Source: Anaerolineaceae bacterium UBA6073
GTDB taxonomy: Bacteria; Chloroflexota; Anaerolineae; Anaerolineales; Anaerolineaceae
Direction: 5' to 3'
Assembly: GCA_002436085.1 (NCBI GenBank)
Contig: DIXT01000021.1
Location: forward strand, 685-64,684
Length of the DNA stretch: 64,000 nucleotides
Translations under genes and position numbers: made by a program
The notes under the pieces: generated by a model
Databases searched by the model: none
The model's input: the letters and a program-made list of their open reading frames with translations, nothing else
Told to the model about the DNA's origin: nothing
Shown here: positions 36,634-57,841 of the stretch, one piece after another
How positions within the stretch are numbered: the stretch's first letter is position 1
Layout of the letters: the number at the start of each line of letters is the position of its first letter

Positions 36634-37608
36634 TTAGGACCTACTGACGATCAAACGCTGCAGGTCGCCGACCACTTCCAGCCCGGCATTTTCCCCGGTG
36701 CTGTCAAAAAGCACTTCGCCTTGCAGGGTCTCGAGCGTCACGTGGATGGAGGCGTTCAGAGTTTCGATCACGCGCCTACCCATGTCCAGGTGGGTAGGCC
36801 CGCGCAGTGCCGAGCCTTCCGCGCGGTAGGCGTTCAGGCGCAGGCGGTGCGTGCGGTTGCGCAGCACCCAGTCAACCTGCGTGTCCGAGACGTCCAGCGC
36901 TTCGATTTTGCTGTTCAGGTAGGTGGTGAAGCGGTGGAGTTTGCCTTCCAGCCAGAAGCCCACGATGAAGCCCTTGAAGGTGTTCCCCATCCAGGGAATC
37001 AGCGCGACTGAAGCGGTGATACAGGCACGCTGGTTCTGAAAATGATTGCTCTGCAACCAAACCCATGCCGCGGGGAAGTTCTTTCCCCAATCTTTTTCCA
37101 TGTATCCCCGGCCGCCGCTAAAATCCATCTCTTTTCCGTTGAGAATCAGCTTGCCTTTCAGGCTGTGGTCGAAGCTGAGCACGCCGTTATAGCATTCCAT
37201 CCCCGGCACCCAAGCAAACCAGCCCATCACGCCCGGCAGGAGCCAGGTGACCGGCCAGGGGTTGAACGGCCCCAGTTGAATTTCGCCTGTGAGCTGGCAT
37301 TCGGGGTCATCCAGATTTACTTTCAGGTGCTGGCCGTCGAATTGGTTGGCGCCGATTTTTACAAAGAAACGCTCTGCGTCCCCGTGGAAATCCTGGAGGG
37401 GAAAAATAACATAGGCAGCCGTCCCATCCACACCGTCCAGAAACTGGACGAAGGCGTGGGCATCCTGTCCGAGGATCACGCCCGGGATGATCGCGAGCTT
37501 ATGCTCTTCGTCCGCGCTGACCAGTTTGTAGTACCAGCCTTCGAAAAAGGGCGGTTTCTTGTTTAAACCGTGGAAGATTCCGGGGTTCAGTGCGGCGGGT
37601 GGTGTCAT
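36634..37608 (-). CDS. tocopherol cyclase-like family protein
   Basis: The N-terminal PFFEGWYYK motif and the size (324 aa) resemble bacterial tocopherol-cyclase-family proteins. Recognised from memory only. Confidence 0.45.
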   Translation of the reverse strand: MTPPAALNPGIFHGLNKKPPFFEGWYYKLVSADEEHKLAIIPGVILGQDAHAFVQFLDGVDGTAAYVIFPLQDFHGDAERFFVKIGANQFDGQHLKVNLDDPECQLTGEIQLGPFNPWPVTWLLPGVMGWFAWVPGMECYNGVLSFDHSLKGKLILNGKEMDFSGGRGYMEKDWGKNFPAAWVWLQSNHFQNQRACITASVALIPWMGNTFKGFIVGFWLEGKLHRFTTYLNSKIEALDVSDTQVDWVLRNRTHRLRLNAYRAEGSALRGPTHLDMGRRVIETLNASIHVTLETLQGEVLFDSTGENAGLEVVGDLQRLIVSRS

Positions 37609-37796
37609 CCTGAGGTTCCTTGGCGCTCGTTTGTGGATGGCGCTTTGAGATGTTTATTGCTTGGATATTAACATAGTTTAACCAGGCGGAAGGCGTATTT
37701 TGAAAGTGGACCTGCACCCATCAGGATGTTTCCCGCCAGCTGCGCAGTAGCGTGCCCTGCCTGAGCTGTTTGTGTATGATGTTTCTGCAAGACCCG

Positions 37797-37829
37797 AAAA
37801 AAAGACACCTGCAGGATTGCAAGTGTCTT
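37797..37829 (-). terminator. rho-independent terminator immediately 3' of the tRNA fragment
   Basis: Stem aagacac / gtgtctt (37802-37808, 37823-37829). On the minus strand it is followed by a T7 run (37797-37803 are A on the plus strand). Confidence 0.65.
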
Positions 37830-37834
37830 GGTAG

Positions 37835-37876
37835 TAGCGGGGAGTGGATTCGAACCACTGACCTCCGGGTTATGAG
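37835..37876 (-). other. 3' fragment (anticodon loop to discriminator) of a tRNA-Met/fMet(CAT)-type gene; putative island attachment-site remnant
   Basis: Reverse complement reads CTCATAA CCCGG AGGTC AGTGG TTCGAAT CCACT CCCCGCT A. That is the anticodon loop, 3' anticodon stem, variable loop, complete T arm and 3' acceptor strand. The preceding sequence (..aaaatct) cannot pair with CCCGG, and no 5' acceptor strand (AGCGGGG) is present. Confidence 0.7.
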
Positions 37877-38400
37877 AGATTTTCCTGGTTTCGGAACGTT
37901 TTGAACTCAGGCTCTGCATTTTAGCCCGGCCTGAGGGACGCTCTTCTGAAGAGGCCGGAGGATCTTTGGTTACGAGTTATTAGACGTATGATAGCGACTT
38001 TTTATGACAGGGTCAAGTAGTAGTTTTTTCGCGACCCGGAGGACGATGGTTGAGTTTTGATGAATGAACGTCCTCTTTTCGAAAAACTTTTGTGAGATGG
38101 AAATATTCTTTAAGATTCGAGGGCGTTTGATTCTGTCAAAGTCTGAGGGATGATGGTTCTAAAACCTGGTTCCATCATCCTATACAGAATGATGATTTTC
38201 GTAATTCGTCGCTATGAAATGGGAAATAACGCATTACGAAAGATCACCAGCAGCCTTCACTCAAGCCTGGAGTGTGTGAATTTTTTTGAGTAATCAAAGC
38301 AATCATTTTGATTTCATTGTGCTATAATCAATAAGGAAATCATGATTATCATAATCTGGATTTCTTTATGTGTGACACGCCAGTGCTATAGGAGGTCCTT

Positions 38401-39789
38401 ATGTTCGTCAACCGCGTCTCTGAACTTGAATTATTGGAAAAACGTTTTCATTTGGGCAAAGCGGAATTCTTCGTTCTATACGGCCGCCGGCGGGTCGGGA
38501 AAACCGAATTGTTAGCACGTTTTTGTGAAGACAAACGGTCGATTTTCTTCGTCTCGGACCTGGGTTCGGAGATATCCCTCAGGACGGCTCTATCCGCTGC
38601 GGTCAATACGACTCTATTTGGCTCCAGCCAAATGAACGCGGTGTACTCCACCTGGGAAGACTTATTCCATGCCCTTGCTCAGGCAGCGCAAAACGAACGG
38701 TTAGTGGTCGTGCTGGATGAGTTCCCCTATCTGGTCACGGCGCACCCACCCTTGGCGACCATTCTTCAGCGTGCGTGGGACCAGACCCTGAAGAACAGTC
38801 AGATCATGCTCATTCTTTGCGGATCTTACATCGGCATGATGGAAGAAACTGTTTTAGGGTATCAGGCACCGCTGTACGGTAGAAGGACAGCGCAGTATCT
38901 TCTCGAGCCATTGCAGTTTAAAGATGCCCGGCTATTTTACCCATCTTTTAATTTAGAAGATCAGGTACGTGCCTATGCGGTTTATGGCGGCACACCAGCT
39001 TATCTGCATACCATCCAATCCCAACAGTCTCTAAACAAAAATATTGTGGATGGAATTCTCACTCGCGGTTCGTTTTTGTATGACGAAGTGCGTTTCGTGC
39101 TTCAACAGGAGCTGCGCGAGCCGCGCAATTACTTCGCGATTTTGCAAGCTATCGCAGCCGGCAAAACTCGTTTGAATGAGATCAAGCAGGCCACAGGGAT
39201 AGAAGGCGCGACTGCATATTTAGATACTCTACAGCAGCTTCACCTGGTTGAGCGCTTGGTCCCGGTGACGGAAACACAGCCTCAAAAGAGCCGCCGCGGC
39301 ATCTATCGTTTGAAAGACCATTATCTGCGCTTCTGGTTTCGGTATATCCATCCGAACCGCTCGCAGCTTGAACGTGGTGGAGCGCAAATAGTCCTGGAAA
39401 ACCAGGTGATACCTGAAATCGACCATTTCTCCAGTCTGACATTTGAGGAAGTCTGTCAGCAATTCTTCTGGCAATCAGGGCTAACCGGTAAATTACCTTT
39501 TGTTCCCACGAATATTGGCAATTGGTGGAATGCCAACGAAGAAATTGATCTCGTTGTATTGGGGGAGAACGATGCCATCCTGGTGGAATGCAAATGGACC
39601 AGTAAACCGGTGGGGATTGATATTCTGGCAGAGCTGGAGAGGAAGGAACAGATTGTTGGACCTGAGTTGGGAGATCGTCGCATCCATTTCGCTTTATGTT
39701 CCCGATCTGGTTTCACTTCTCAACTGACCGAGGACACAAAACACCGACAAGACTTAACTTTATTAAATTTACCGGAGATCGTGGGGTAA
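38401..39789 (+). CDS. AAA-type ATPase with C-terminal DUF234 (archaeal-ATPase family)
   Basis: FVNRVSELELLEK..FFVLYGRRRVGKTELL (Walker A), VVVLDEFPYL (Walker B). AGGAGG ribosome-binding site at 38388-38393. Confidence 0.75.
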   Translation: MFVNRVSELELLEKRFHLGKAEFFVLYGRRRVGKTELLARFCEDKRSIFFVSDLGSEISLRTALSAAVNTTLFGSSQMNAVYSTWEDLFHALAQAAQNERLVVVLDEFPYLVTAHPPLATILQRAWDQTLKNSQIMLILCGSYIGMMEETVLGYQAPLYGRRTAQYLLEPLQFKDARLFYPSFNLEDQVRAYAVYGGTPAYLHTIQSQQSLNKNIVDGILTRGSFLYDEVRFVLQQELREPRNYFAILQAIAAGKTRLNEIKQATGIEGATAYLDTLQQLHLVERLVPVTETQPQKSRRGIYRLKDHYLRFWFRYIHPNRSQLERGGAQIVLENQVIPEIDHFSSLTFEEVCQQFFWQSGLTGKLPFVPTNIGNWWNANEEIDLVVLGENDAILVECKWTSKPVGIDILAELERKEQIVGPELGDRRIHFALCSRSGFTSQLTEDTKHRQDLTLLNLPEIVG

Positions 39790-39942
39790 TCATCCGAAAA
39801 AAGGCATGGAGTTCTCTTCCCACAGATATCATCCCAGTTCTATCGGGACCTTGCCGCTGACGTTACCGCAGACGTTAATTACCAGGGAGATATTTTCGGT
39901 TTGTTCCCATATTGATCGATAGACTATTCTCAAATTTCAGTG

Positions 39943-41694
39943 TTAAAGCTTGCGCAATTCTGCTTGCAATGCAGGCCGGCGCGAATAGGTGCTTTTTAAC
40001 CCCTCCAGGTAAGATAACCATTCTTCTTTCCTGCCAGAGGCAAGGTAGGCTTGTTTCATCTTTGCCAGCCAGCGCGCTGCAGCGGCATAATATTTGCTCT
40101 GGGTTTTGGCGATTAACCCTTCTGCCTGTTTCCGGCTGGCCTGGATAACCCAATCCGGGCGTAAGGGGAAAACAGCATCCGCGACTTTTTCGATCAGGGA
40201 ATAATTCCATTCGCCGGCTTTTTTGGCAATGCTAATCGCCTTATCCCAATCTTCTTCAGAAAGATAAACATCGACAAGCACATCCATGTGGGGTGAGGCT
40301 TGAAGAATTTGCATAAGAACCGGTCGTAAATCCCCCCAATTCGCACCAGATAACTTCTTGAGTATACTGTACAGTTCCAATGAAGGCAGGCTGGTGAATG
40401 CTGCCTGGTAAGCTTTGATGGCCTTATCAATCTGTCCCTGGGTCTCTTCAATGGGTCCCAGCCAGGCGCCTAATTCATGTTTGTTGCCATCCAAGTCAAG
40501 CCCTTTCTCTGCCAGGCGCAGCGCATCAAGCAAATACCCGGCGTCTCGCAACGCTTTGGCTACCATTAAGGCATCACTGGCTTGAGTGATGGTTTTCCAT
40601 GCAACTTCTTTCGCCTTTTCAAAATTTCCCACCTCTATCTGTTTAAGAATATAGCGCCGGTATTCTCCAGCCTCAAAACATAACTGTAGAAATTCTTCTA
40701 CACAGTTATGACGTTCCAAGATATTCAATTTGGCTTCGGTCAGGATAGATTCGTCATAATCATAATCTTCCTGCTCATCCAACACTTCCTCCGACCAGCC
40801 AAGATTCAGGGCGGCCAGGATCACATCTAGATCATCAATCCCGTAGGCGCTTAATTCTTCAACCACAGGTTCCAACTCAATAAACAGGTTGTGACGTTCG
40901 GTTTTACTCAGATCGGCGCTCAGAATGGCTTCAACAAGAGGCAGGACCAATTCACTAAAAAAGACACCCAACTCGCCGTCGGAATCATCAAACTGTTCAA
41001 AACTTCCACTGACCTCGGTTAGAAGGGTGGTCAGGATGATCAACGCCCCATGCGCATCATCCGCTTCCAGAAAATCATAGGCTGTATCGCGAACATGATT
41101 CAGTTGATCGACCATTCCGCCCATCATCCAGTATGCTTCTGACATGCGATACCCTTGAAGACTGTGCAATATGCTTTGAATTTGTCGCTTGTATACCGTC
41201 TTTGATACTTCCGTTTTACGCTTATCTCGTTGTTGGGCTGGTTGGGACTTGGCTGACACGGCTGGAATGGCAGTTTGCAGCCATGAATACAAATCCGGAT
41301 TTTTATCTACCATTTTTGTGATCAGGTACACTAGTCCATCTTTATCCAGTTGCCCCAACAGCTCTTTGATGTTTTTTTGCTCGATAAAAGCATCCGGGCT
41401 ATGGACATAGGTGAGCATTAAGGCAATGATATGCTTGCAGTAACCGCCCCAGCCCCCTCCGGGGGTGTTCCGATCATATGGGCAGGTGCAAGAAGCCTCC
41501 TGGATACCGCCTTCATCCAATTGAACACGTATCTGATAAAACGGCGCACTGCTGCCTTTGCATTTTCCGGTCAAGAGGTCACCCTGCCGGAAGGTGTCAA
41601 AGACTGCGTCAGATTGGTACAGATCATGCCCGCGAGTGAAGCTTTCAGGGGAGGATAAGGATTTGAGGAGATTTTCGGTCATTTTATTTGTCAT
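39943..41694 (-). CDS. SWIM zinc-finger protein with helical-repeat C-terminal region
   Basis: SWIM signature CTCPYDRNTPGGGWGGYCKHIIAL (CxC..CxH) near the N-terminus. 583 aa. Confidence 0.75.
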   Translation of the reverse strand: MTNKMTENLLKSLSSPESFTRGHDLYQSDAVFDTFRQGDLLTGKCKGSSAPFYQIRVQLDEGGIQEASCTCPYDRNTPGGGWGGYCKHIIALMLTYVHSPDAFIEQKNIKELLGQLDKDGLVYLITKMVDKNPDLYSWLQTAIPAVSAKSQPAQQRDKRKTEVSKTVYKRQIQSILHSLQGYRMSEAYWMMGGMVDQLNHVRDTAYDFLEADDAHGALIILTTLLTEVSGSFEQFDDSDGELGVFFSELVLPLVEAILSADLSKTERHNLFIELEPVVEELSAYGIDDLDVILAALNLGWSEEVLDEQEDYDYDESILTEAKLNILERHNCVEEFLQLCFEAGEYRRYILKQIEVGNFEKAKEVAWKTITQASDALMVAKALRDAGYLLDALRLAEKGLDLDGNKHELGAWLGPIEETQGQIDKAIKAYQAAFTSLPSLELYSILKKLSGANWGDLRPVLMQILQASPHMDVLVDVYLSEEDWDKAISIAKKAGEWNYSLIEKVADAVFPLRPDWVIQASRKQAEGLIAKTQSKYYAAAARWLAKMKQAYLASGRKEEWLSYLEGLKSTYSRRPALQAELRKL

Positions 41695-41948
41695 GCGGAT
41701 AATCCCTTAAGCAATACTCCAGATGGTGATTCGTCTCTTCTTATTTTCAAGTAAAAGCAAATTCCATTAAATTGAACTTTTCGGTCAAAGTTCTTCAATC
41801 AAGAAAAATGAAACATGTATAAAAATGACCCACCTCGGTGCGCATGCAAAGCAGAGGCGTGGTGGGTACTGTTGGATTGATTATAACCAGGTTTACACAT
41901 AATAAGTCTTACCTGGCACACTTCCAGGCAATCAAAACCCAAATAAGG

Positions 41949-42221
41949 TCATTTTGTGTCGGGTATTAACTTGAATTCAATCTTTGCGCCTAACGCTTCA
42001 GCGATCTTCGCAAGGAAGGATAAACTAGGAGTGCTTGAGCCATTCTCTAATCTAGCGATGGAAGGTTGCCGAGTGCCAACCATCTTAGCAAGTTGAGCCT
42101 GAGTTAAACCCCTTAACATGCGGAGCCGGGCAACCTGGTAGCCGGGTTCCAATTCCTCGGCAGCAGCCAGGAAATCCGGGGCTTTAATCTTTTCAACTTC
42201 CCAATCTTCAAATTTTGGCAA
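41949..42221 (-). CDS. XRE family helix-turn-helix regulator (antitoxin-like)
   Basis: LRGLTQAQLAKMVGTRQPSIARLENG is a canonical XRE HTH. TTG start preceded by GAAGGAAG. Confidence 0.75.
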   Translation of the reverse strand: MPKFEDWEVEKIKAPDFLAAAEELEPGYQVARLRMLRGLTQAQLAKMVGTRQPSIARLENGSSTPSLSFLAKIAEALGAKIEFKLIPDTK

Positions 42222-42522
42222 TTTACTTCCTTCAATGCCAAATCCATTGAATCTTTCAGGTCTAGATGATCAATGCCCGCAAGAACTATTCCACCTGCAC
42301 TAATCAGATCTATCGCTAAAGAAACCTAAATTATCATAATCCAGATTTCTTTATTTCTTGCGTCAGTTCCAATCAAAGTAAGCACTTGTTATTATCAATT
42401 TCAGACTGAAATGATAATAACATTGGATGTGCTCTCATTTATGATAATAGCCACTACCTGAAGACAACATCAAAGGTATTCATCCGAAATATTTCCGGAC
42501 TAGTGTTTTATCCTTGGCTAAA

Positions 42523-42720
42523 TCATTTATCATCTTTGTGTTTGGTCTTGTCCACCAGGATAAATCCCTGGCCTGGTTTTGGCGTTGGCGGCAAGGTTTC
42601 GCCTTTGGTAACGGTGACTTCAGTCCCGGTTTTTCCGCCTTTTGGACCAACTACGCCATATTGTCCAGATTCCGGGGCCTTCTGACCCGGCTTGTGCATT
42701 GTACCTTTGGGTTTACTCAT
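42523..42720 (-). CDS. small YjzC-like protein
   Basis: MSKPKGTMHKPGQKAPESGQYGVVGPKGG..VTVTKGETLPPTPKPGQGF resembles the YjzC family pattern. The ATG at 42720 has an AAAGGA ribosome-binding site. The listed ORF start at 42750 overlaps the PIN gene. Confidence 0.45.
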   Translation of the reverse strand: MSKPKGTMHKPGQKAPESGQYGVVGPKGGKTGTEVTVTKGETLPPTPKPGQGFILVDKTKHKDDK

Positions 42721-42737
42721 TCGAATATCCTTTCTGG

Positions 42738-43232
42738 TCAAAATGACCAACGATCAAAACGTTTTTGACATTCACCATCTGGCAGTCTTGCCCCTTGATC
42801 GAGCATTTCCCGGAGGGCAATGGCTGCCTGATTTTCTGTAAGAACATGGTGGATCACCATTTCATCCAATATCCATAGCACCCCGTGAACCGGTACCCCC
42901 TGCGCTTTGGCAAGTTCATTAAGTCTTCGGTCGCCGGTCACCAAACTTGCATCCAATACCCTGGCAAGCAATAATGCAGCCAGGTCGATGGCTGATAATT
43001 GACGATGGATTTGCCTTAACCGGACTAATTCGAGCACATATTCAGGTTCAAGACCATGTGTTTGCAATCCCAGATCTTGCAGCGTTGCCCACCTGGGATG
43101 AATAAACTCTTCTACCGCAAAATCAGTGGTGAAAAATTGATATGGAAGATGGAAAACAGCGGCTAATATCTTGCCGTTCTCGAGGTCGATCCAAATATTC
43201 GTATCAGTTACCAGAACGGATGGCAAGGTCAT
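42738..43232 (-). CDS. PIN-domain nuclease
   Basis: N-terminal VLVTDTNIWIDL and C-terminal LVTGDRRL acidic motifs typical of the PIN fold. Overlaps the upstream XRE-ImmA gene by 29 nt. Confidence 0.7.
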   Translation of the reverse strand: MTLPSVLVTDTNIWIDLENGKILAAVFHLPYQFFTTDFAVEEFIHPRWATLQDLGLQTHGLEPEYVLELVRLRQIHRQLSAIDLAALLLARVLDASLVTGDRRLNELAKAQGVPVHGVLWILDEMVIHHVLTENQAAIALREMLDQGARLPDGECQKRFDRWSF

Positions 43233-44256
43233 TTAGCTGCAGTGCCTCCATCTCCCACCCTAGTTGTAATGGCTTGCCATACAATTCCTGCGCCCTGGAA
43301 CGCGAGATCAAATCCTCAGCCAAAGCGCGATAAATTAACCGTTCCATCCGCATGGGCGTTTCAGAAGGATAAGGTTTTCCTGGTTCCTGGCGATGCCAAT
43401 CATTGACGCGGAACTGCTGGAATAAACGCGCTGCGGTGTTTTCAGAAATAATGGAAAGATCCTTGGCGCGGTAAATCCAGGCTTGCATACTTAAGCCGTA
43501 TTTATGCTTAAGCATGTGCAACTCGTTGATATTAAGGTCCGTCCGGTTGGCACCGAGTTCAAAGCGAGCCGTTGCAGCCGGCACGAGGAAAGCCCCGACA
43601 AACCGATTGGCCGCCTGTTCTGGCTTGAGGTTGCCCTGAACATCCAGGATCAGGTGTCCCAGTTCATGCCCTAAATTGAATCGCTGCCGGTCGCCTGATA
43701 ATTCGCCTTTGGTTACAATGACCGGATCGCCATCGGCCTTGAAAGTGCAGGCGTCAAAATGCTCGAAACCAGAGATGATCCCCACCTTGATTCCCCGGTC
43801 CTCCAGCAACTGGACCAGATTTTCGATTGCATCATAGCCCAAGCTCCAGTGGTCACGTAATTCGAGAGCTGCGGTTTCAATTTCATCCAGTGAGGTCACT
43901 TTGCGCAGGGGGAGGTTTGCCGCATGTTGTTCTTCCGGGAAAAGGCTTTCGACCTCGAGATAACGCTCCACCCAATCCTGGATGCGCATCTGGATGGCTT
44001 CCTGTTCTTTGACGCCCAGTCCAGCGTGTTTTCGATATGCTTGAAGTTGTACAGAGACCGTGCTCGGGCGAAAGAAGAAATCCACTTTGACCTGCAAAGC
44101 CTGAGACAGCCGCAGCAATACGCCAGAGCTGGGCACATCCTGGTCGCGTTCATATTTTGAGATTGCCATGGCGCTGACCCCAATTTCATCCGCCAGTTTT
44201 CGCAAGGAAAAATTGCCCGCTTTCCGAGCCTGTTTGATACGCCCTCCGATGGTCAT
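43204..44256 (-). CDS. XRE HTH fused to ImmA/IrrE-family (COG2856) zinc metallopeptidase
   Basis: N-terminal HTH FSLRKLADEIGVSAMAISKYERD. Central HEXXH motif LGHELGHLIL. Confidence 0.8.
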   Translation of the reverse strand: MTIGGRIKQARKAGNFSLRKLADEIGVSAMAISKYERDQDVPSSGVLLRLSQALQVKVDFFFRPSTVSVQLQAYRKHAGLGVKEQEAIQMRIQDWVERYLEVESLFPEEQHAANLPLRKVTSLDEIETAALELRDHWSLGYDAIENLVQLLEDRGIKVGIISGFEHFDACTFKADGDPVIVTKGELSGDRQRFNLGHELGHLILDVQGNLKPEQAANRFVGAFLVPAATARFELGANRTDLNINELHMLKHKYGLSMQAWIYRAKDLSIISENTAARLFQQFRVNDWHRQEPGKPYPSETPMRMERLIYRALAEDLISRSRAQELYGKPLQLGWEMEALQLNDLAIRSGN

Positions 44257-44279
44257 GGCCTCCTCCTTTTCTCTTTCAG

Positions 44280-44313
44280 TTTACATAATAGCACTAAATA
44301 CATAATTTGTAAA
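44280..44313. promoter_or_regulatory. imperfect inverted repeat in the divergent promoter region (candidate operator)
   Basis: TTTACATAAT..(14 nt)..AATTTGTAAA matches at 8 of 10 positions, with an internal direct repeat ACATAAT x2. A gctataatc -10-like box lies downstream at about 44383. Confidence 0.3.
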
Positions 44314-44436
44314 CTGTTATCTACTCAAAAATGGATTGGGGAAAACTGCCCTCCTATTTGATTTTGCTTTTTCTTTCCTGATGCTATAATCATTAGAGCA
44401 ACTGTGATAATCTCAATTTTAACAGCGAGGTGAGTA

Positions 44437-44646
44437 ATGGCCGACACGGATGAGTTCTGGACGGCAGAAGAAGTCTCAAATTACCTACGAATTCCGCAAT
44501 CGACCATTTACAAGCTCGCCCAAGATAAAGTGTTACCCGGTTTTAAGGTGGGAAAGCACTGGAGATTTCGCCGAGAGGCTATTCTTAAATGGATTGATGA
44601 CAGCGAAAATAAAAAATCAACTCCAACATCCGGTAACCTAAAGTAA
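44437..44646 (+). CDS. excisionase-family / MerR-like helix-turn-helix DNA-binding protein
   Basis: FWTAEEVSNYLRIPQSTIYKLAQDKVLPGFKVGKHWRFRREAILKWI is the typical excisionase-type HTH pattern. 69 aa. It ends 8 nt before drmD. Confidence 0.75.
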   Translation: MADTDEFWTAEEVSNYLRIPQSTIYKLAQDKVLPGFKVGKHWRFRREAILKWIDDSENKKSTPTSGNLK

Positions 44647-44654
44647 AACCTTCG

Positions 44655-47600
44655 ATGATTACAAACACTACTACTTCCATCCCCGAAATCGGACAAATCG
44701 TCACCGTACGTCAACGTCGGTATGTTGTATCTGACATACAGCAGAGTACAATCCCGCTTGAAGTCCTTTCGAAAAATGGGGATAAACCACAGCACCTGAT
44801 TTTCCTAAGCTCAATTGAAGATGATGCACTGGGGGAGACCCTTCAGGTTATTTGGGAGATCGAACCGGACGCCAGAATAAATGATAAATCGGGATTACCC
44901 GACCCAGCAGGGTTTGATTCTCCAATAAAGTTCGACGCTTTTATAAATGCAGTTCGTTGGGGAGCGATCAGCTCAGCAGATATCCGCTCCCTTCAAGCCC
45001 CTTTCAGAAGCGGCATAACCATTGAAGATTATCAATTGGATCCGCTCGTGCGTGCGGTTCAGATGCCACGTGCGAATTTACTGGTAGCTGATGATGTGGG
45101 TCTGGGTAAAACTATCGAAGCCGGCCTCATCGTACAGGAATTACTGCTGCGCAACCGGGCCCGAACAGTGTTGATTGTCTGCCCCTCTTCCCTGCAGATC
45201 CAATGGCGCGATCAAATGCGGGATAAGTTTGGGCTTGAGTTTCGTATTGTGGATGCAGAGTTGATGCGCACTTTACGTCGCACTCGTGGATTACATACCA
45301 ATCCATGGTCGCACTTTCCACGTCTGATTACCTCGATCGATTTTCTAAAACGTGATCGCCCCATGCGATTATTCAAAGAAATCCTACCTGCCGAGGATGA
45401 GCCAAAATACCCACGCAAATTTGACATCCTCATCATTGACGAAGCCCACAATATTGCCCCGGTAGGACGCGGTAAATATGCTACGGATTCCCTTCGAACG
45501 TTGGCCATTCGCACGATTGCTCCAAATTTCGAACATAAATTATTCTTAACCGCCACGCCTCACAACGGTTACAAAGAATCTTTTACCGCCTTGCTAGAAT
45601 TACTGGACAATCAGCGCTTTGCTCGTGGCATTGAGCCAGATCGACAGCAACTCCAGTTGGTGATGGTCCGGCGCATGAAAAGCGAACTGCCTCCCCAGTT
45701 TGATGGCACCCCTCGCTTCCCGAAACGTTCCATTCAGGCGATTGAAGTTTCTTACTCGGATGAGGAAAAGAAAGCTCACGCCTGGCTGCAGGAGTACACT
45801 GAACTGCGCCAGCAGAACCCAAAAGATGCCGTTGAGCGTTATGCAACCGAATTTATGATGAAGATGCTCAAGAAGCGGTTGTTTTCTTCGCCAGCTGCGT
45901 TCTTGCTCACCCTTGAACAACATTTAAAGACGCTTGAGAAGACGAAGACCCTTTCTGATCAGCATAAACCAGTCTTTGGCATTTTACGCCAGCAGCTTGA
46001 AGCCGCGGAGGAAGATGATCCACAAGAGACCTCTGAAGAACCAGGTGAAGATGTGATCTTGACAGCCACCCGCCTTTTCCGCCCGGTTACCCCCCGCGAA
46101 AAGGAATTATTAGATAACCTGCTGGCCTGGGCGAAGCGCTCCGCAGCCCGTCCAGACAGCAAAATCCAGGAACTACTGAAATGGTTGAAGACCAACATCA
46201 AACCCAATGGGGTCTGGTCCAATGAACGGGTAGTCATTTTCACTGAATACCGTGCAACGTTAAATTCACTACAGGAATTGCTCGCCATGGAAGGCTTTAC
46301 AGGTGATAACCGCTTGATGACCCTTTATGGCGGAATGGATGATGAAAAACGCGAGAGCGTCAAAGCTGCATTCCAGGCCCGACCAGAGATCAGCCCGGTG
46401 CGGATTTTATTGGCCACCGATGCGGCTTCAGAGGGTATTGACCTGCAAAACCATTGCCACTGTATTATCCACACGGAAATACCCTGGAATCCGAACCGCC
46501 TGGAACAGCGCAATGGCCGCCTTGACCGTCATGGGCAAACAAAGGATGTGTTGGTTCACCATTTTGTAACCAAAGGATTCCGCGATCAGGAGCAGAATGC
46601 ATGGGATGTGCGCGGACAGGGACTGGAAGCCGATCTGGAATTCCTTTTTCGGGCAGTGAAGAAGGTTGAACAAATTCGTGAAGACCTGGGTAAGGTTGGT
46701 CCCGTAATTGCCCTGCAGGTGGAAGAAGCCATGCTGGGCAAACGCCGCCATCTGGATACTGCTCAGGCAGAACGCGATAATGAACCGGTAAGGCGGATGC
46801 TGAAATTCGAGCGCGACTTGCGCGCTCAAATTGCCCGTCATATGGAGCAGCTTCAAGAAACACGCCAGACCATGAACTTTTCACCGGAAAACACCGAGAT
46901 CATCGTGGAAACCGCTTTGGAACTGGCAGGTCAGCGTGGATTAATCCCGGCGAAACTGCCTAAACTTCCTGGTGAGCAGCATCCGATCAACGGCACACCA
47001 ATCTATGAACTTCCGGCATTGACCGGCAGTTGGGCGGCTTGCGCAGAGGGGTTGGCGCACCCGCATACGGGCAAGATCCGCCCGATTACTTTTGACCATA
47101 ATGTAGTCGATGGGCGCGATGACGTGGTGCTGGCGCATCTCAACCACCGTCTGGTGCAGATGTCCTTGCGCCTGCTGCGCGCCGAGGTTTGGTCGCCGGC
47201 CAGCAAGAAGGGTTTGCACCGCCTGACTGCGCGGTTGGTTGCGGATACTGCACTCACCGACCCGGCAGTCATTGCTTTTGCACGGTTGGTTGTGACCGGC
47301 GGCGACCAGAACCGGCTGCACGAAGAGATTATTTCAACCGGAGGGTTTTTAAAGGAAGGTAAGTTCAACCGGATGAACGTCGGCCAGGTGACAAATGCCC
47401 TACAGGCCGCCACCGACCAGGAACCCAATGCAGCCATGCAGCAGCGCTTATTGGATCTCTATGCTCGCATGATTCCTTCTCTATCTTCTGCATTGGAAGC
47501 GCGCTGCAAAGACCGTATGGATGGCATCCAGAAATTGCTGACAGAACGCTCTGAGTTTGAAGCCAGAAGTATCGAAAGCGTCCTCAATGAGCTGGCCAGT

Positions 47601-47834
47601 TCCATCCGCCAGGAACTGGATGAGCCTGAAGTACTGCAGCTGGAATTGTTTACCAGCGAGGAAAAGGAACAATTGAATCGCAACATGGACGCTCTACGGC
47701 GAAGGCTGGCAGCTATTCCGGGCGAAATTGAGCAGGAAAAAATGGTGATTCAAAAAAGGTTCTCGGACCCGCAGATACGTATGTTTCCGGTTGCAATCAT
47801 GTTTCTCGTTCCCGAGAAATATTCACGCGGATAA
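44655..47834 (+). CDS. drmD: SNF2-family helicase, DISARM class 1 DrmD-like
   Basis: Motif I LLVADDVGLGKTIEAG, motif II ILIIDEAHNIAP, C-terminal helicase LLATDAASEGIDLQ and NPNRLEQRNGRLDRHGQ. First large gene of the operon. Confidence 0.8.
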   Translation: MITNTTTSIPEIGQIVTVRQRRYVVSDIQQSTIPLEVLSKNGDKPQHLIFLSSIEDDALGETLQVIWEIEPDARINDKSGLPDPAGFDSPIKFDAFINAVRWGAISSADIRSLQAPFRSGITIEDYQLDPLVRAVQMPRANLLVADDVGLGKTIEAGLIVQELLLRNRARTVLIVCPSSLQIQWRDQMRDKFGLEFRIVDAELMRTLRRTRGLHTNPWSHFPRLITSIDFLKRDRPMRLFKEILPAEDEPKYPRKFDILIIDEAHNIAPVGRGKYATDSLRTLAIRTIAPNFEHKLFLTATPHNGYKESFTALLELLDNQRFARGIEPDRQQLQLVMVRRMKSELPPQFDGTPRFPKRSIQAIEVSYSDEEKKAHAWLQEYTELRQQNPKDAVERYATEFMMKMLKKRLFSSPAAFLLTLEQHLKTLEKTKTLSDQHKPVFGILRQQLEAAEEDDPQETSEEPGEDVILTATRLFRPVTPREKELLDNLLAWAKRSAARPDSKIQELLKWLKTNIKPNGVWSNERVVIFTEYRATLNSLQELLAMEGFTGDNRLMTLYGGMDDEKRESVKAAFQARPEISPVRILLATDAASEGIDLQNHCHCIIHTEIPWNPNRLEQRNGRLDRHGQTKDVLVHHFVTKGFRDQEQNAWDVRGQGLEADLEFLFRAVKKVEQIREDLGKVGPVIALQVEEAMLGKRRHLDTAQAERDNEPVRRMLKFERDLRAQIARHMEQLQETRQTMNFSPENTEIIVETALELAGQRGLIPAKLPKLPGEQHPINGTPIYELPALTGSWAACAEGLAHPHTGKIRPITFDHNVVDGRDDVVLAHLNHRLVQMSLRLLRAEVWSPASKKGLHRLTARLVADTALTDPAVIAFARLVVTGGDQNRLHEEIISTGGFLKEGKFNRMNVGQVTNALQAATDQEPNAAMQQRLLDLYARMIPSLSSALEARCKDRMDGIQKLLTERSEFEARSIESVLNELASSIRQELDEPEVLQLELFTSEEKEQLNRNMDALRRRLAAIPGEIEQEKMVIQKRFSDPQIRMFPVAIMFLVPEKYSRG

Positions 47835-47870
47835 TAACTTTCTGATTAGCAACTTTTCGAGGGAGTTTTT

Positions 47871-49409
47871 ATGGCCATTTCAAAAAAAGCAATCAACAAG
47901 GGAAATGCCGAAGAAGGTTCAGGAATTCGTCAATCTGATAATCGGATAAGCGTTAGTATTTATTTTTCTGATTATTTCAATGTCAGCCCAAGATTGCTTG
48001 AGGAGTATGGTGCCTTTAATATATCACTTGTTAATGATCTTCCATTGTTTATTGACCCATTTTTATTATTCACTTCTACGCGGGATGAATATCGTCAATT
48101 ACACGATGGCATTATTCGTTACCTCCGGTTTCTACGCGATAAATCAATTAGCGGAAAGATTACCCCCGGTTTATTATTGGCTTGGTTTATGTTCAAGGAG
48201 GTTAAGCAAACCTGGCTTGGTTTTTCGCGCTTCGGTAATAGTGGTAGTGGCTTAGGCATGGATTTCGGTCGAGCCCTAAATGAAAACCTCATTAGAGTGT
48301 TTTCAGATTTTGGAAATGAACGAATTACACATGGAAGTCACCTTGAAAAATTGTGTTTGATAAATGAGGGTGTAGGCAGAGACAACATTAGTGACTTTTC
48401 AACTAATTTAATAAAGGAATACTTGCTTAGTTACACTCAGAAGTTTGCCCAGGAAAATATTGCACCCGACCTGCTGGGGAAGTATCGAGTCCCCAAAGTA
48501 CGGTTCAATTATGAAACGGAAAAATGGGAGTCTGAATTATTTAATCTCCCTGTTTACAATGGTGATTATGTTATCTTGACCCCAGTGGATATGCTTACAA
48601 AGGATTCGATTTGGATCAACAGGGAGGACTTGGTCAAGAATTTTAGGGAAATAGCCGAGTCCGTTCCTGATGAGCAACTTAGGGCTGAACTTAACAATTA
48701 CCTCTCAGCCGAAATACCAAAAGATGCAAAGTCAAAAGAGATTAACACTGTTCACGCAAGCGCTTATAAAGTTTTTCCTAAACTCCTTGAATACTATATC
48801 AAATACAAAGAAGATCATGGCGAGGAAGCTAAAGCTTTAAGTGAAACAAATGTCGAGGAATCCAAGCTTCTTTTTATTGACCAGGTTGTTGATTTCATAA
48901 TTTCTCTGTCGAATAACACAGGCTTTTATCAAACCAGCGGTGACACTCTAAAAGACGCCTACGATCGCGTCATGTTTATGAAGCACGTGATAGAGCATCA
49001 AGACGGTTATAGACTTTTCTATATCAATGGTGAACCTGTTAAACGCGAAAGCGACGTCCAACTAATTTTTAAATTTACCTGGTTTGCATCGCCCTCTGAT
49101 ATTAATGCTGAGGTTAACAATGGGCGCGGTCCAGTTGATTTTAAAGCATCGCGGGGGGCTTATGACAAGTCACTCATTGAGTTTAAACTTGCGTTGAATA
49201 CCCAATTACGGCGCAATCTTCAAAACCAGGTCGAAATCTATAAAATGGCGAATGATACGGAAAAAGCTTTGAAAGTGATTGTTTATTTTTCTGAATTGGA
49301 ACTTCTTAAAGTACAGGCTATATTAGAAGAACTTGAATTGAAAGACGAAAGATCCATCATCCTTATTGACGCAAGAGCAGACAACAAACCATCTGCATCT
49401 AAGGCTTAA
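47871..49409 (+). CDS. hypothetical protein with C-terminal PD-(D/E)xK-like nuclease motif
   Basis: 512 aa, AT-rich gene. The C-terminal ..ESDVQLIF..GRGPVDFKASRGAYDKSLIEFKLA.. fits the E...PD...ExK arrangement. Ends 3 nt before drmMI. Confidence 0.6.
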   Translation: MAISKKAINKGNAEEGSGIRQSDNRISVSIYFSDYFNVSPRLLEEYGAFNISLVNDLPLFIDPFLLFTSTRDEYRQLHDGIIRYLRFLRDKSISGKITPGLLLAWFMFKEVKQTWLGFSRFGNSGSGLGMDFGRALNENLIRVFSDFGNERITHGSHLEKLCLINEGVGRDNISDFSTNLIKEYLLSYTQKFAQENIAPDLLGKYRVPKVRFNYETEKWESELFNLPVYNGDYVILTPVDMLTKDSIWINREDLVKNFREIAESVPDEQLRAELNNYLSAEIPKDAKSKEINTVHASAYKVFPKLLEYYIKYKEDHGEEAKALSETNVEESKLLFIDQVVDFIISLSNNTGFYQTSGDTLKDAYDRVMFMKHVIEHQDGYRLFYINGEPVKRESDVQLIFKFTWFASPSDINAEVNNGRGPVDFKASRGAYDKSLIEFKLALNTQLRRNLQNQVEIYKMANDTEKALKVIVYFSELELLKVQAILEELELKDERSIILIDARADNKPSASKA

Positions 49410-49412
49410 ACC

Positions 49413-52400
49413 ATGTCCATCGCCCGACACCACAACGAATGGCTTTCTCTGATTGAAATATCCGGCCCGTTTTTGAGCCTGCCGGTGCTGATGCGCACCT
49501 TCCCGCAGGGATTGGACGCGCTTGACCGCGATGGCCTGGCGGAACTGCGCCTGGCATATGAGGAATGGCTGGATGACCAAAACAGCCTGCGCCCCTCACC
49601 GGCTATTCATTCGGTGTGGGTACGTTATGTGCTCGAACACGTTCTCGGCTTTGAAAAAAGCCATCTGCTCGAGGGTCCGGCGATACCGGCGACCCTGCAA
49701 GCCTTTGTTGCCGAACAGGGCGAGACCCTGCGCCCCGACCTCGTTGTATCTAATTCCCCTCTCCTCCCAGGAGAGGGGTTAGGGGTGAGGTTACTGGTTC
49801 AGGTTTGCCCCATGACCCAGGGGCTGGAAGAATCCATGCTGAATCACCGCTGGAAAGCCTCGCCGGCCATGCGCATGCTCGAACTGCTGCGCGCTACTGG
49901 TGTTTCGTTGGGTCTGGTGACCAACGGCGAGCAGTGGATGCTGGTCAACGCGCCTAAGGGCGAGACCAGCGCGTTTGTCTCCTGGTATGCCGCCCTGTGG
50001 TTGGAAGAGCCGCTCACTTTGCGGGCTTTCTCTTCATTACTAGGTGCAACACGTTTCTTCTCGGTGGCGGACGAGGATACCCTGGAAGGCATGCTCAAGG
50101 ACAGCGTCAACGAGCAGCAGGAAGTCACCGACCAGTTGGGCTACCAGGTGCGCCGGGCGGTGGAGGTATTGATCCGCGCCATTGATAAGGCCGACCAGGA
50201 CTGCGGTCGAACGCTTTTGAAGGACATTCCGGAAAAAGACCTGTACGAGGCTGCCCTGACGGTGATGATGCGTCTTGTTTTCCTCTTTTCCGCCGAAGAG
50301 CGCGGACTGTTGCTGCTGGGCGACCCGCTTTACGATCAGAACTATGCGGTCTCTACCCTGCGCGCCCAGTTGCGTGAAACCGCCGATCAGCAGGGTGAAG
50401 AGGTGCTGGAGCGCCGCTTCGATGCCTGGTGCCGACTGCTGGCCACCTTCCGTGCCGTGCATGACGGCATTCACCACGACCGTCTGAACCTGCCGGCTTA
50501 CGGCGGCAGCCTGTTTGATCCTGATCGTTACCCATTTTTGGAAGGAAGAATTGCCCTCATCCCTAACCCTTATCCCGAGAGGGGAAGGGAATCCCCTCTC
50601 CCCGCCGCTTCGGCGCTCCGTAGGGAGCCGGGAGAGGGCAAGGGTGAGGGTCCGCTTCCCATCTCGAACCGCACGGTGCTGCATCTGTTGGAAGCGCTGC
50701 AGGTGCTGCGTGTCAAGGTTCCGGGCGGTGGACCCGCCGAAGCCCGTCGGCTCTCCTTCCGCGCGCTGGATGTGGAGCAGATCGGTCACGTCTATGAAGG
50801 CTTGCTGGATCATATTGCCGTGCGCGCCAGCGAACCCGTGCTGGGGCTGGCTGGCACACGCGAGAAAGAACCGGAGCTATCGCTGCCCACTCTGCGGGTG
50901 GAAGAAGCCAAAGGCGAGAAGAATTTTCTTGCCTATCTTAAAGAGCAAACCGGGCGGTCAGAAAACGCGCTGCGCAAAGCCCTGCAGGAAAGACCGGACG
51001 TGTTCACCAACCAGCACTTGCTCATTGCCTGTAACAACGATGCAAAGATGCTGGAGAGGGTGGCGCCGTACGCCGGTCTGCTGCGCGAGGATGACTTTGG
51101 CTACCCAGCGGTTTTCTTACCGGGCAGCGTGTACGTCACCGCCGGAGCCACGCGCCGCGCCACCGGCACACACTACACTCCACGCAGTCTGACCGAGCCG
51201 ATTGTGCAGCACACCCTCGAGCCGCTGGTTTATACCGGCCCAGCCGAGGGGCTGCCCAAAGAACAGTGGACGCTCAAATCTCCCGCGGAACTGCTGGATC
51301 TGAAGGTTTGCGACATGGCCATGGGTTCTGCCGGTTTCCTGGTGCAGGTGATCCGCTACCTCTCGGAGCGGTTGGTAGAAGCCTGGGATCAAATCTCCCC
51401 AGAACCATTTGCTAAATCTCAACCTTCGGAAATATCTGGAATTCCTGTAGAAGTCCCTCACCCCAGCCCTCTCCCAGCGGGAGGGGTGGTAGCTAAGGAA
51501 GCATTATCGCCTGAAATGCTGGAGCGGGTGCGGGAACTGCGTAAGAACGCAACGGAGGCGGAAGCTTTTCTATGGGAATTGTTGCGCGACCGCCAATTGG
51601 CTGGTTTCAAATTCCGCCGCCAGCATCCCCTGGGCGGAACCATTCTTGATTTTTACTGCCATGAAGTCCACCTGGCCGTTGAGATCGACGGCGCCGTCCA
51701 CAAGGAACCGGAACAGGCCCAGCACGACGCCGAACGCTCCGCCTATCTGAACGAACAGGGAATCCGGGTCATTCGCTTCTGGAACCACGAAGTCCTGAAT
51801 CAAACAGATGCCGTTCTAAAGAAAATTCTGAAAGAGTTTCAGTCGTCTGCTTCTCCAGTGCTCCCTTCTCCCAGTGGGAGAAGGGCTGGGGATGAGGGCC
51901 GCTTCCTCCGCATCACCCCCGAAGGCCAGCCCGCCAGCGGCAAACCCAATGAGATCATTATTCCCAAGGACGATGAAGAGCGCCTGGTGCTGGCCCGCCG
52001 CCTGGTGGCCGATCGCTGCATCTACGGGGTGGACAAGAACCCTCTGGCGGTGGAGATTGCCAAGCTGTCGATCTGGTTAACCACCATGGACAAGGGCCGG
52101 CCCTTCACCTTTCTGGATCACGCCCTCAAATGCGGCGATTCGCTGGTGGGTGCGGATGAAGACATGTACCGCAAATGGGCCTACAGCCTGAAAGGCGCCC
52201 AATTCACACTTTACCTGACCACGCTGGAGGAATTTACCGCAGCCGCCCGGCAGAAACGCAGGGAACTGGAAAGCTTCACCGTGCTGGACGTGCGCGATGC
52301 CGAACACAAAGCCGAACTGTTGAAAGAAGCCGACGCCGCCATGGCGCGCGTGAAACTGGGCTGCGACCTGCTGGTGGGTGTGCGTCTGCTGGGATTGAAA

Positions 52401-54200: not shown

Positions 54201-55288
54201 TCGTGTTCAACTGAAATTGGCAACTACTTAATTATCCAAGTCAATGAGATAATTTACCTAAAGCGATCAAGGAGTTCGAGATGAGAATAAAAATGATTTC
54301 AGTGAAAAAACTTTTCGGTATGTTTGACTACACCATACCGTTAAATCTTGAAAAACGCGCAACAATAATCATTGGACCTAATGGATATGGAAAAACAACG
54401 ATATTAAAAATGGTCAATGGAATATTTAATGGGAATCTTTCAATTCTTTTCAGAGTTCCGTTTAATGAATTCACTATTGATTTTGAGGATAATTCCAAAA
54501 TTCAGTTGTTGAAAAAGAAAAGTAGCAAGAAAAATACGCGAGGCATTTTGGATATATTTCTAACTTTCTCCAAACCCGGAGAAGAAAATAAATCCATAAA
54601 TCTCACTGATATTGGTTCAGAGAAAAATCGAGAATTTATTTATTACGCTTCAGATATGCTCCGTGATGAATACATTGATCGTTCGACTCTCCGATTACTT
54701 CGTGCTGGAGGAGATTTCCAGAATATTGAGAATATTTTTAGTATTTATGAAAAACTGTATGATATGTTTTCAAGAGAAATGAATTATGGCGAAAAAAGAT
54801 CTTCTCGGCTTCACTTTCCAGCATTTCTGCAATCTGAATTTGGTGAAAAATTGCAAGCGATTATGCAGATTACGCGAACTTTGAATGTACATTTTATCCA
54901 AACACAAAGATTAATATCCTATACAACACAAGAAAAAGCTGAAAGATCAGAGAAGGAAACCCCTGTTGTCAATATGTACTCAAATGCGCTCGCGAAAGAT
55001 ATCGAAACTACTCTTGCGCAGTCATCCCAACAGGCACAAAAGCTGGACAGTACGTTCCCCAGACGTGTTATCACCAATCTGCCCCCAAAGGGGACAAAGG
55101 ATGCTTATCAAAAGCTTCTGAAGGAACTCGAAGATCTAAGAAATAAAAGAATTCACCTGAGAGACACCGGCATTCTAGTTGACCTTGGTGATGACTTGGA
55201 AATTACTGAGTCAATCGATGATATCAATCGCCTAAATTATCTCAACGGAGTTCTTACTGAGTATATAAACGATACTCGTATTAAACTA

Positions 55289-56476
55289 GTAGTCAGTCTT
55301 AATGGATAAGATGGAATAATCCTTGCAACCAATGGGGCGAGGAGACCTCCAAAATGCCAAAGAAACTGTACCATATAAACTTAAATGATGAAGAACAACA
55401 GACATTGTTCGAAATGACTCGAAAAGGCAAAATCAAAGCACGCCAGATGAAACGGGCAATGATTTTACTGAAAGCAAACGAGGGTTTGTCAGATCCACAG
55501 ATCATGGCGGCATTGAATGTAAGCCGACCTTGTGTTGAACGAATCCGCAAGCGGTTTGTGTTGGGTGGCTTGCAAAAAGCGTTGAATGAAGATCCTCGAC
55601 CTGGGCAAAGACGGAAATTGGATGGTCGAGGCGAAGCCACCTTAATAGCAACAGCTTGCAGCCAGGTTCCAGAAGGGCATGAGCATTGGACTCTGCGTTT
55701 ACTGGCAGGAAAGATGGTTGAACTGGAAGTGGTGGACTCGATCTCACATGAAACTATCCGCCGAACGCTAAAAAAAATGAGATAAAGCCCTGGCAGAAAG
55801 AAATGTGGTGCATTCCAGAAGCCAGTGCGGAATATGTGGCTTGCATGGAAGATGTTCTGGATCAATATGAACGGCCCTACGATGGCAGCTCCCCCCAGGT
55901 TTGTTTTGATGAAGGGCAGAAACAGTTGATTGAAGAAACTCGGAAGGGATATCCGTGCAAAGCAGGGTACAAAAGACGCTACGATTATGAGTACAAACGC
56001 AATGGTGTTCGCAACTTGAACATGCTTTATGAACCTTTGTCTGGGAAACGATATGTAAGAATCACAGAACGGCATACCATGGTTGATTTTGCACAATGTA
56101 TGAAATGGCTGGTGGATGAGCTCTATCCGGATGCCATCCTGATCCGCGTTGTTATGGACAACCTCGGCACACATAAGCCAGCTTCTCTGTACGAAGCATT
56201 TCCACCACAAGAAGCCCGCCGGATTCTCAAAAAGTTGGAATTTCATTACACCCCAAAACATGGCAGTTGGCTGGATATGGCAGAAATTGAGTTGAGTGTA
56301 TTTAGCCGAAAGCTGAAACAGCACATACCCGACGAAACCCTTCTCAAAACGGAGGTGCAAGCCATTGTGGAGGAGCGAAACAGCGTCCATTCGATTATTA
56401 AATGGCAATTCCGAACTGAAGACGCTCGCATCAAGTTGAAGCAGCTTTATCCATCTGTTTCTGCCTGACCGACTAC
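55289..56476 (+). mobile_element. IS630-family insertion sequence (1188 bp) with TA target duplication
   Basis: Terminal inverted repeats GTAGTCAGTC (55289-55298) and GACCGACTAC (56467-56476) match at 9 of 10 positions. TA lies on both sides (55287-55288 and 56477-56478). Encodes a two-ORF IS630-type transposase. Confidence 0.85.
55354..56468 (+). CDS. IS630-family transposase (orfA HTH + orfB DDE, joined by a -1 frameshift in an A8 run)
   Basis: orfA 55354-55785 carries HTH domains. orfB (frame -1) carries DDE-domain blocks (VCFDEGQKQL, VVMDNLGTHK, YTPKHGSWLDMAEIE). Slipping -1 in AAAAAAAA (55770-55777) yields ..TLKKNEIKPWQKEMWCIPE.., the junction typical of IS630 transposases. Confidence 0.85.
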
Positions 56477-56867
56477 TAGCAATATTCGATGAATTAGCAG
56501 GAAAAATCGAATTATTAAAAAAGATAATCAATGAAAGGTTTTCCTATAAGAAACTAGAAATTAGCAAAGACAAAGGTTTCATATTTATGACCACACAAGG
56601 GGAAGAACTCCCGCCAGACGCTTTATCGTCAGGTGAGCAGCATGAATTGGTCATGTTTTATGAATTCCTGTTTAAAGTACCCAAAGGATCTCTGCTTTTG
56701 ATCGATGAACCTGAACTTTCTTTGCACATAGATTGGCAGCAAAGGTTCTTAAAGGATTTAATTGAAATTGCTGAATTAGCGGGGTTTGATGTCGTGATAG
56801 CGACCCATGCACCATCGATCATCAATAACTTTTGGTCACTAGCAGTAGATTTAGGGGAATTGGATAA

Positions 56868-57809: not shown

Positions 57810-57841
57810 GCGGGAAAATATCATGAAGGGCAAAGAAGTAT

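Follow-up and report, generated by a model that had tools for sequence, protein, structure and literature searches.

An orphan 3' portion of the initiator tRNA gene as the probable far junction of a tyrosine-integrase island in an uncultured Anaerolineaceae bacterium

Integrative elements at small-RNA genes

Genomic islands and prophages are integrated into tRNA genes by tyrosine integrases, and one sublocation class of these elements uses the anticodon loop (Williams 2002, Nucleic Acids Res 30:866, as cited in PMC9897764). The tRNA fragments that result from tyrosine-integrase insertions are described in the same article (PMC9897764). Here we analyse an orphan tRNA fragment within a 64,000-nt stretch of Anaerolineaceae DNA (hereafter the window), where it marks the left edge of an island carrying DISARM and PARIS genes. 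Elements of this kind in Anaerolineae, as judged largely from relatives, share several features with islands of the anticodon-loop class: a direct repeat that runs from the anticodon loop to the 3' end of the tRNA, an integrase that adjoins the rebuilt tRNA, a far-end orphan 3' fragment with its native downstream context, variable cargo, and tandem arrays. They differ in their target, the tRNA-fMet gene of Anaerolineae, in having a short XerC/D-like integrase that lacks an arm-binding domain, and in the far-end module, which consists of a promoter plus leader. In addition, the rebuilt tRNA obtains its terminator from the P' arm of the element.

The far-end module invites comparison with Pcirc of ICEclc, an outward promoter at the integrase-distal end that comes to lie upstream of the integrase gene once the element is excised (Sentchilo et al. 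2003, summarised in PMC5812530). As far as that summary describes Pcirc, the promoter of the Anaerolineae element is similar in being constitutive-looking, integrase-distal and outward-facing in the integrated state, and excision would likewise set it before the integrase gene. In contrast to the system summarised there, the Anaerolineae element has an intrinsic terminator between the att core and int as well as a conserved leader of about 110 nt.

Two further systems are relevant. The P arm of phage lambda attP relies on arm-type sites for Int, IHF and Xis, and an arm-binding domain is part of lambda Int. Like this arm, the Anaerolineae module spans about 150 conserved nt next to the core, away from the integrase, and meets P'-int only in the circular form, but here the integrase has no arm-binding domain and the arm carries a promoter. 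The second system comes from Dehalococcoides, where islands targeting ssrA reportedly lie in tandem, their borders marked by repeated copies of the 3' end of the tmRNA gene. These are also Chloroflexota elements that insert serially and site-specifically at a small-RNA gene, with short 3'-end repeats and adaptive cargo, whereas the target gene, the integrase family and the cargo are different. We know of no report of a promoter-bearing end module for the Dehalococcoides islands.

We propose that a tyrosine-integrase integrative element entered the tRNA-fMet gene of an uncultured Anaerolineaceae bacterium and that the fragment represents its distal (attR-type) junction, and assign this reading a probability of about 0.87.

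The fragment, its parent gene and the junction

In reverse complement, the window corresponds to JGI contig TOLCLC_10000364 (65,334 nt), and the source sample is the metagenome of a hydrocarbon-degrading culture, a toluene-degrading enrichment. On the minus strand, positions 37876-37835 read CTCATAA, CCCGG, AGGTC, AGTGG, TTCGAAT, CCACT, CCCCGCT and A, forming the 42-mer CTCATAACCCGGAGGTCAGTGGTTCGAATCCACTCCCCGCTA. This 42-mer is found once in the 64-kb window even when 3 mismatches are allowed, the chance expectation being 0. No tRNA was called at the fragment by ARAGORN, or by Rfam at gathering and permissive thresholds; the sole tRNA that ARAGORN reports in the window is a tRNA-Val at 686-760. 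The bases 5' of the fragment show no kinship to a tRNA 5' half. Directly 3' of it there is a terminator with a 12-bp hairpin and a run of seven T (Table 1), and GC content drops from 0.567 in window positions 1-37831 to 0.480 in 37877-64000. These results bear out the first-pass annotation, which had described the 3' part of a tRNA gene from the anticodon loop to the discriminator without its 5' half, a hairpin and T7 terminator immediately behind it, and a change of composition to its right. The 42-nt shared segment of that annotation holds as an exact copy, but the true repeat is 45 nt long and extends through CTA, since it forms a separate unitig in the source assembly graph.

Public contigs were scanned for exact matches to the 42-mer. 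At least 245 occurrences were found, and nearly all named matches belong to Anaerolineae (Bellilinea, Leptolinea, Levilinea, Longilinea, Anaerolinea and many MAGs). In at least 132 of these at least 245 copies the 42-mer is preceded by (T/C)GCGGGGTAGAGCAG..GCTCGTCGGG, giving a 73-nt tRNA with the anticodon CAT. The intact tRNA of relatives reads (U/C)GCGGGGUAGAGCAG..GCUCGUCGGG followed by the 42-mer; it has a CAU anticodon, three G:C pairs (GGG/CCC) adjoining the anticodon loop, and U1 or C1 opposite U72, and its gene does not encode CCA. The three G:C stem pairs and the U or C opposite U72 identify the parent as a bacterial initiator tRNA-fMet and not an elongator, so that the earlier assignment to tRNA-Met(CAT) was right in its anticodon and is here corrected to the initiator. 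Of this gene, the fragment retains the CAU loop and CCC at positions 39-41. About 100 of the at least 245 copies are orphan fragments, most of them situated behind one of a few conserved end modules (classes A, B and rarer families, described below), and many sit in tandem arrays carrying defence, metal-resistance and other cargo.

The source sample also contains an archaeal-type initiator tRNA (AGCGGGGTAGGGTAGC..., A1:U72), which has the anticodon-loop region in common with the bacterial gene and forms a separate branch of the assembly graph. It presumably derives from the methanogens of the culture.

Table 1. Features at the island edge and within the island (positions in the window)
Feature	Position	Strand	Evidence
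Tocopherol-cyclase-like gene, first chromosomal gene past the junction	36634..37608	-	Lies in flank 100% identical to contig L006, which lacks this island
Native intrinsic terminator of the displaced tRNA 3' end	37795..37829	-	12-bp stem 37829-37802 plus T7; identical in contig L006, which bears a different element
Orphan 3' part of tRNA-fMet, 45 nt, from the anticodon loop through the discriminator and CTA	37832..37876	-	Exact 42-mer match to at least 132 intact tRNA-fMet genes; no tRNA called; own 45-nt unitig at about 4x depth
Class B leader, about 110 nt	37877..37987	-	Alignments; kept across about 20 islands with unrelated neighbouring cargo (among matches listed)
Outward sigma70-type promoter	37988..38016	-	TTGACC 38016-38011, 17-nt spacer, TATCAT 37993-37988; 10/12 consensus
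Class B upstream conserved block	38017..38055	-	Includes CCTCCGGGT; the tRNA fragment has its reverse complement, ACCCGGAGG
Island DNA in the window	37877..64000		Pfam; GC 0.480; 90-95% nt homologues beside class B units or integrase in L190, L093, L215, L031
Excisionase-type HTH_17 gene	44437..44646	+	Divergent from XRE-ImmA-like gene 43204-44256 (-)

The position of the junction is defined by a contig from another sample (L006). Starting with the first base of the 42-mer, this contig and the window agree at all 11,243 nt compared. At the very next base upstream of CTCATAA the two diverge, and L006 carries a different element end, a class A unit. The same chromosome therefore exists with two different neighbours and the breakpoint is the anticodon loop, a presence/absence polymorphism that breaks at the repeat. 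It had been proposed to compare close relatives in which an uninterrupted tRNA-Met is followed by the gene at 36634..37608; L006 supplies that flank without this island, broken at CTCATAA and with a class A unit as its neighbour. Several independent assemblies of the chromosomal flank also end within the fragment.

In the assembly graph of the source sample, 37832-37876 is a separate 45-nt unitig with a depth of 630-650. The chromosomal flank has a depth of 164-171 and the island flank 167-224, and the paths leading into the unitig have depths of 170 (class B) and 163 (a class A-like unit). At about four times the surrounding depth, the segment is therefore present some four times at the organism's abundance; on the window's own contig there is neither a second copy of the 45-mer nor an integrase. 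The first-pass annotation had explained the fragment by a tyrosine integrase acting at the anticodon loop. This explanation is upheld by the exact L006 junction, the fourfold depth of the 45-mer, the integrase family found at this site and a copy of the island in a relative (L031), and the 45-nt segment is supported as the copy of the direct repeat or att core at the distal (attR-type) junction.

The integrase family and the far end of the island

The integrase of this family is a 337-aa protein (Phage_integrase plus SAM-like domain) without an arm-binding domain, encoded on the tRNA strand and starting about 90 nt after the tRNA. Among the matches listed that have enough downstream sequence, it occupies this position (about +90) at 57 loci: 31 of the 73 intact tRNA-fMet genes have it behind them, as do 26 of the 67 orphan fragments. 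Three main integrase types occur among the relatives. Behind the integrase there is a backbone that encodes a second recombinase-like protein, an HTH/DUF5679 zinc-ribbon (Xis-like) protein, a DnaB-like helicase, a ParM-like actin and HTH_17, followed by cargo. In the relatives' loci, the 3.5 kb preceding a class A or B end module never contained an integrase. The integrases behind fragments indicate that tandem arrays are made by repeated insertion; the unit-45-mer-P'-int junctions seen in 26 loci are equally compatible with tandem arrays and with an attP circle.

Repeats at both ends of an island have been found in several relatives. Bellilinea DAISHK010000002.1 has an intact tRNA with a type-2 integrase and, at a distance of 26.7 kb, a class B unit and fragment, and in MKUW01000021.1 a 37-kb island with a type-2 integrase is located between a class A-like fragment and a class B fragment. 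Both ends are also seen in L048, and in L093 and L031 taken together.

The islet in L048 (394-7818) is 7.4 kb long, lies between an intact tRNA-fMet gene and a class A unit with its fragment, and contains no integrase. Its cargo consists of copper resistance genes (P-type ATPase, CueP, two-component system). Next to the tRNA lies a 255-aa ORF for which Pfam gives no match. Here the direct repeat runs through the 40-nt terminator and is at least 82 nt long. The order of units within arrays (loci L013-L251) is not random: class A units are mostly followed by a type-2 integrase (8 of 12) and class B units by type 1 (7 of 8). The two complete islands, unlike the order in arrays, have a type-2 integrase at one end and a class B unit at the other. 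Another type of element also uses the 42-mer: in L029 and L068 (class C flanks), the integrase gene sits on the fragment side and its 3' end (...LGHETLDMVRRYLAIAQTD...) reads straight into the fragment.

Comparison with these relatives shows that the attP of the element contains 45 nt of tRNA sequence, which begin at the anticodon loop and end 3 nt beyond the discriminator. When recombination takes place in this stretch, a whole tRNA is restored at the integrase end, and the original 3' piece is moved to the far end together with the terminator that belongs to it. The resulting order in relatives is the rebuilt tRNA, about 90 nt, the 337-aa XerC/D-like integrase, the Xis-like HTH/zinc-ribbon protein, the DnaB-like helicase, the ParM-like actin, cargo and the end module. 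Repeated integrations give rise to tandem arrays.

Island genes within the window include a DUF234 ATPase, a SWIM protein, XRE/PIN/ImmA-like genes, an Xis-like HTH_17 gene and a class 1 DISARM system, nested within which is an IS630-interrupted PARIS pair. At 54281-57809 the PARIS AAA_15 ATPase gene (ariA) is split by the IS630-type insertion (HTH 55354-55785, DDE_3 55803-56468) into parts of 342 aa and 94 aa; the DUF4435 partner gene is intact. Related DNA is found in L190 (Bellilinea sp.), which has 92% identity over window positions 41821-45685 and adjoins a class B unit, and in L093, with about 90% identity over 44341-52487 (the Xis-like gene, and drmD to drmMI), where a class B unit with its fragment forms the end. 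In L031, identity is 95% over 62637-64000 and 93% over the continuation of the window (drmC and a 162-aa metallophosphoesterase-like gene), the homologous stretch taking in drmB as well. The shift in GC content, the mobile-element switch genes inside the island and these homologues beside class B units or an integrase support the view that everything from 37877 to the window end, including DISARM and PARIS, is island cargo, as the initial annotation had predicted.

In L031 the sequence continues with HTH_17, ParM-like, DnaB-like and Xis-like genes, a type-2 integrase, an intact tRNA-fMet gene and the core gene engA (EngA), the integrase/tRNA-fMet end lying about 7.5 kb past drmC. Exact-protein look-ups extend the window itself by about 11 kb past base 64000, to window-equivalent 75.4 kb, and the island is at least 37 kb long in the source strain. 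Past the 162-aa gene there is an IS encoding a 313-aa DDE transposase (DDE_Tnp_1), then a 9.5-kb insert and a second copy of that IS in the same orientation. The genes of the insert specify a two-component system (response regulator plus histidine kinase), TetR and an ABC/FtsX/MFP exporter, and the arrangement is composite-transposon-like. One of the two IS4/5-type copies occupies L252 8952-9893 (window-equivalent about 64.7 kb), and the other begins at 10397 in L260 (about 75.4 kb) and reaches the end of that contig. Homology to L031 ends exactly at the start of the first IS, and in the roughly 11 kb beyond the window end neither the 45-mer nor an integrase was found. Because all assemblies break at the two IS copies, the far end is reconstructed from a relative and from equal depth.

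Contigs of the source sample aligned to L031 cover the whole backbone and the integrase at about 90-93% identity and a depth of 167-185, the depth of the DISARM contig being 171. Equal metagenome depth and the 93-95% identity of L031 suggest that this backbone and integrase belong to the genome of the window. A 208-nt contig of the same sample links the N-terminus of this type-2-like integrase and the P' arm to the 45-mer. The intact tRNA and integrase that had been predicted beyond base 64000 are thus present in the predicted arrangement in L031, with backbone and integrase at the organism's depth in the source sample, but neither lies in the 11 kb walked. The integrase adjoins an intact tRNA in L031, but in the source strain, where a class A-like path leads into the 45-mer, it is probably set against another orphan fragment. 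A class A end module would precede this orphan 45-mer, and the intact tRNA would lie beyond it. The most economical layout, read along the tRNA strand, would begin with tRNA-fMet and, further on, a class A unit and a 45-mer; then would follow the integrase, the backbone, the IS-flanked 9.5-kb insert, the metallophosphoesterase-like gene, DISARM/PARIS, the Xis/ImmA switch genes, the SWIM protein, the DUF234 ATPase and the class B module, and finally the second 45-mer, the terminator and the chromosome.

The IS insertions (IS630 in ariA and the two IS4/5-type copies) suggest decay. They raise the question of whether the fragment is a true scar of an island that is now an immobile relic, stuck since IS activity separated or damaged its integrase end. 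Two IS copies do flank the 9.5-kb insert between DISARM and the predicted backbone, the PARIS ATPase gene is split, and the native flank and the class B path have depths of 171 and 170, so that nearly every cell carries the island. However, the integrase and full backbone occur at equal depth and with few indels relative to L031, and a 100% identical flank joined to another element end elsewhere points to recent gain or loss at this exact point. Immobility is therefore possible, but we regard it as rather unlikely.

The promoter-bearing end module

On the island side of the fragment, 140-180 nt form a conserved module consisting of a promoter (CTTGAC-17-TAnnAT) and a leader of about 110 nt, directed into the fragment. 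Class B units (about 20 loci) agree with one another at about 90-95% over the 180-190 nt preceding the 42-mer, and DNA farther out is often unrelated; class A (about 45 loci, including L006) and several rarer families have the same layout. The distance from the -10 box to the end of the 45-mer is constant at 155-156 nt. In 21 non-redundant units both hexamers are kept, the 17-nt spacer varies and the DNA upstream is only A-rich. Conservation of hexamers with a variable spacer is the signature that a working promoter would leave, and the native tRNA-fMet promoters in the relatives' genomes use identical hexamers. As far as sequence can tell, the promoter lies at the integrase-distal end and faces out of the element.

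In the integrated state this promoter would transcribe the leader into the displaced tRNA piece and its terminator. In the excised circle the order would be unit, 45-mer, about 90 nt and int, placing the promoter upstream of the P' terminator and int. The relatives have a strong hairpin and T-run terminator between the 45-mer and int, and simple read-through from the end promoter into int is therefore doubtful. Nor are the conserved 140-180 nt explained by classic arm sites, since the integrase has no arm-binding domain. Candidate roles of the end promoter would be Pcirc-like control of int or production of a small chimeric RNA.

The leader itself shows little sign of structure. For all classes, RNAalifold recovered only the T arm, almost no double-sided change was seen when compensatory changes were sought within class A, averaged pair probabilities of the module are weak, and there is no Rfam match for it. 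Pairing of the leader against the tRNA was rejected, the 17-bp class B duplex with the fragment being no better than shuffled controls, as in every other class. A conserved small ORF in the leader was likewise rejected: the class B ORF passes through the fragment and the class A frame stops at the TAA of the anticodon loop. tmRNA, Y-RNA-like, SRP-like and CRISPR/omega-RNA-type guides are without Rfam support, and the junction evidence contradicts an element-internal guide.

Contigs of four metatranscriptomes contain the unit; they reach past the promoter, may include DNA, and for that reason define neither a transcript nor its start. If these contigs are nevertheless taken together with the kept hexamers and variable spacer, the constant length of 155-156 nt, and the L048 repeat that includes the terminator with no integrase between tRNA and unit, it could be argued that promoter, leader, tRNA-fMet 3' half and terminator are a conserved stand-alone ncRNA gene and no scar at all. 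We consider this highly improbable, because class A and class B units abut the same 100% identical flank with a break at CTCATAA and units always lie at the integrase-distal end of variable DNA; moreover, there is neither significant covariation nor leader-fragment pairing, and contigs that pass the promoter leave the transcription start undefined. Least probable of all is the exchange of islands as cassettes by homologous recombination between the tRNA or 45-mer and the end modules, which would suit the repeats of at least 85 nt where the terminator is in common (L048), the class A/class B chimera in L242 and the islets without integrase, but not the dedicated integrase at a constant +90 nt or so in 57 loci, an identity block that begins precisely at the anticodon loop as is typical of anticodon-loop integrases, or a repeat of only 45 nt in the window's strain.

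With the fragment read as an integration junction, the module might be an element-encoded small-RNA gene that is completed by integration. Its product would be a chimeric RNA of about 190 nt (promoter, leader, tRNA-fMet 3' half with the T arm, terminator) that signals or governs whether the element is integrated or excised, or acts on factors handling initiator tRNA. This idea is speculative, and we think it more probably wrong than right by some distance.

Some further features of the end modules were observed. An inverted repeat, TTCGTAATTCGTCAC...GTGACGAATTACGAA, lies in non-coding DNA just inside several class B ends (window 38196-38240, near the ends of L258 and L260, and in L124 and L229); it reappears before the second IS copy and may be an operator. 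The class B module contains two copies of TCCTCCGG(G/C), at 38017-38055 and 37944-37955. Their reverse complement, CCGGAGGA / CCCGGAGG, occurs in the tRNA fragment, and they could be accessory core-type sites for an integrase without an arm-binding domain. The chimera in L242 (5836-5991) has the promoter and first half of class A and the second half of class B, which suggests that it arose by recombination between neighbouring array units.

The scar is of a classical, well-known kind, that of a tRNA-targeting tyrosine-integrase element. What is new is the initiator tRNA as the target in Anaerolineae, the size of the family and its tandem arrays, and the promoter-bearing end module. One boundary of the DISARM/PARIS island is now fixed, and the island appears to be mobile DNA and not part of the core genome. 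Elements frequently insert into the initiator tRNA gene in Anaerolineae, and the end module together with the 45-mer provides a simple sequence tag by which islands can be delimited in a poorly studied, mostly uncultured phylum. The outward promoter and its leader of constant length may reveal how short XerC/D-like integrases without arm-binding domains are regulated.
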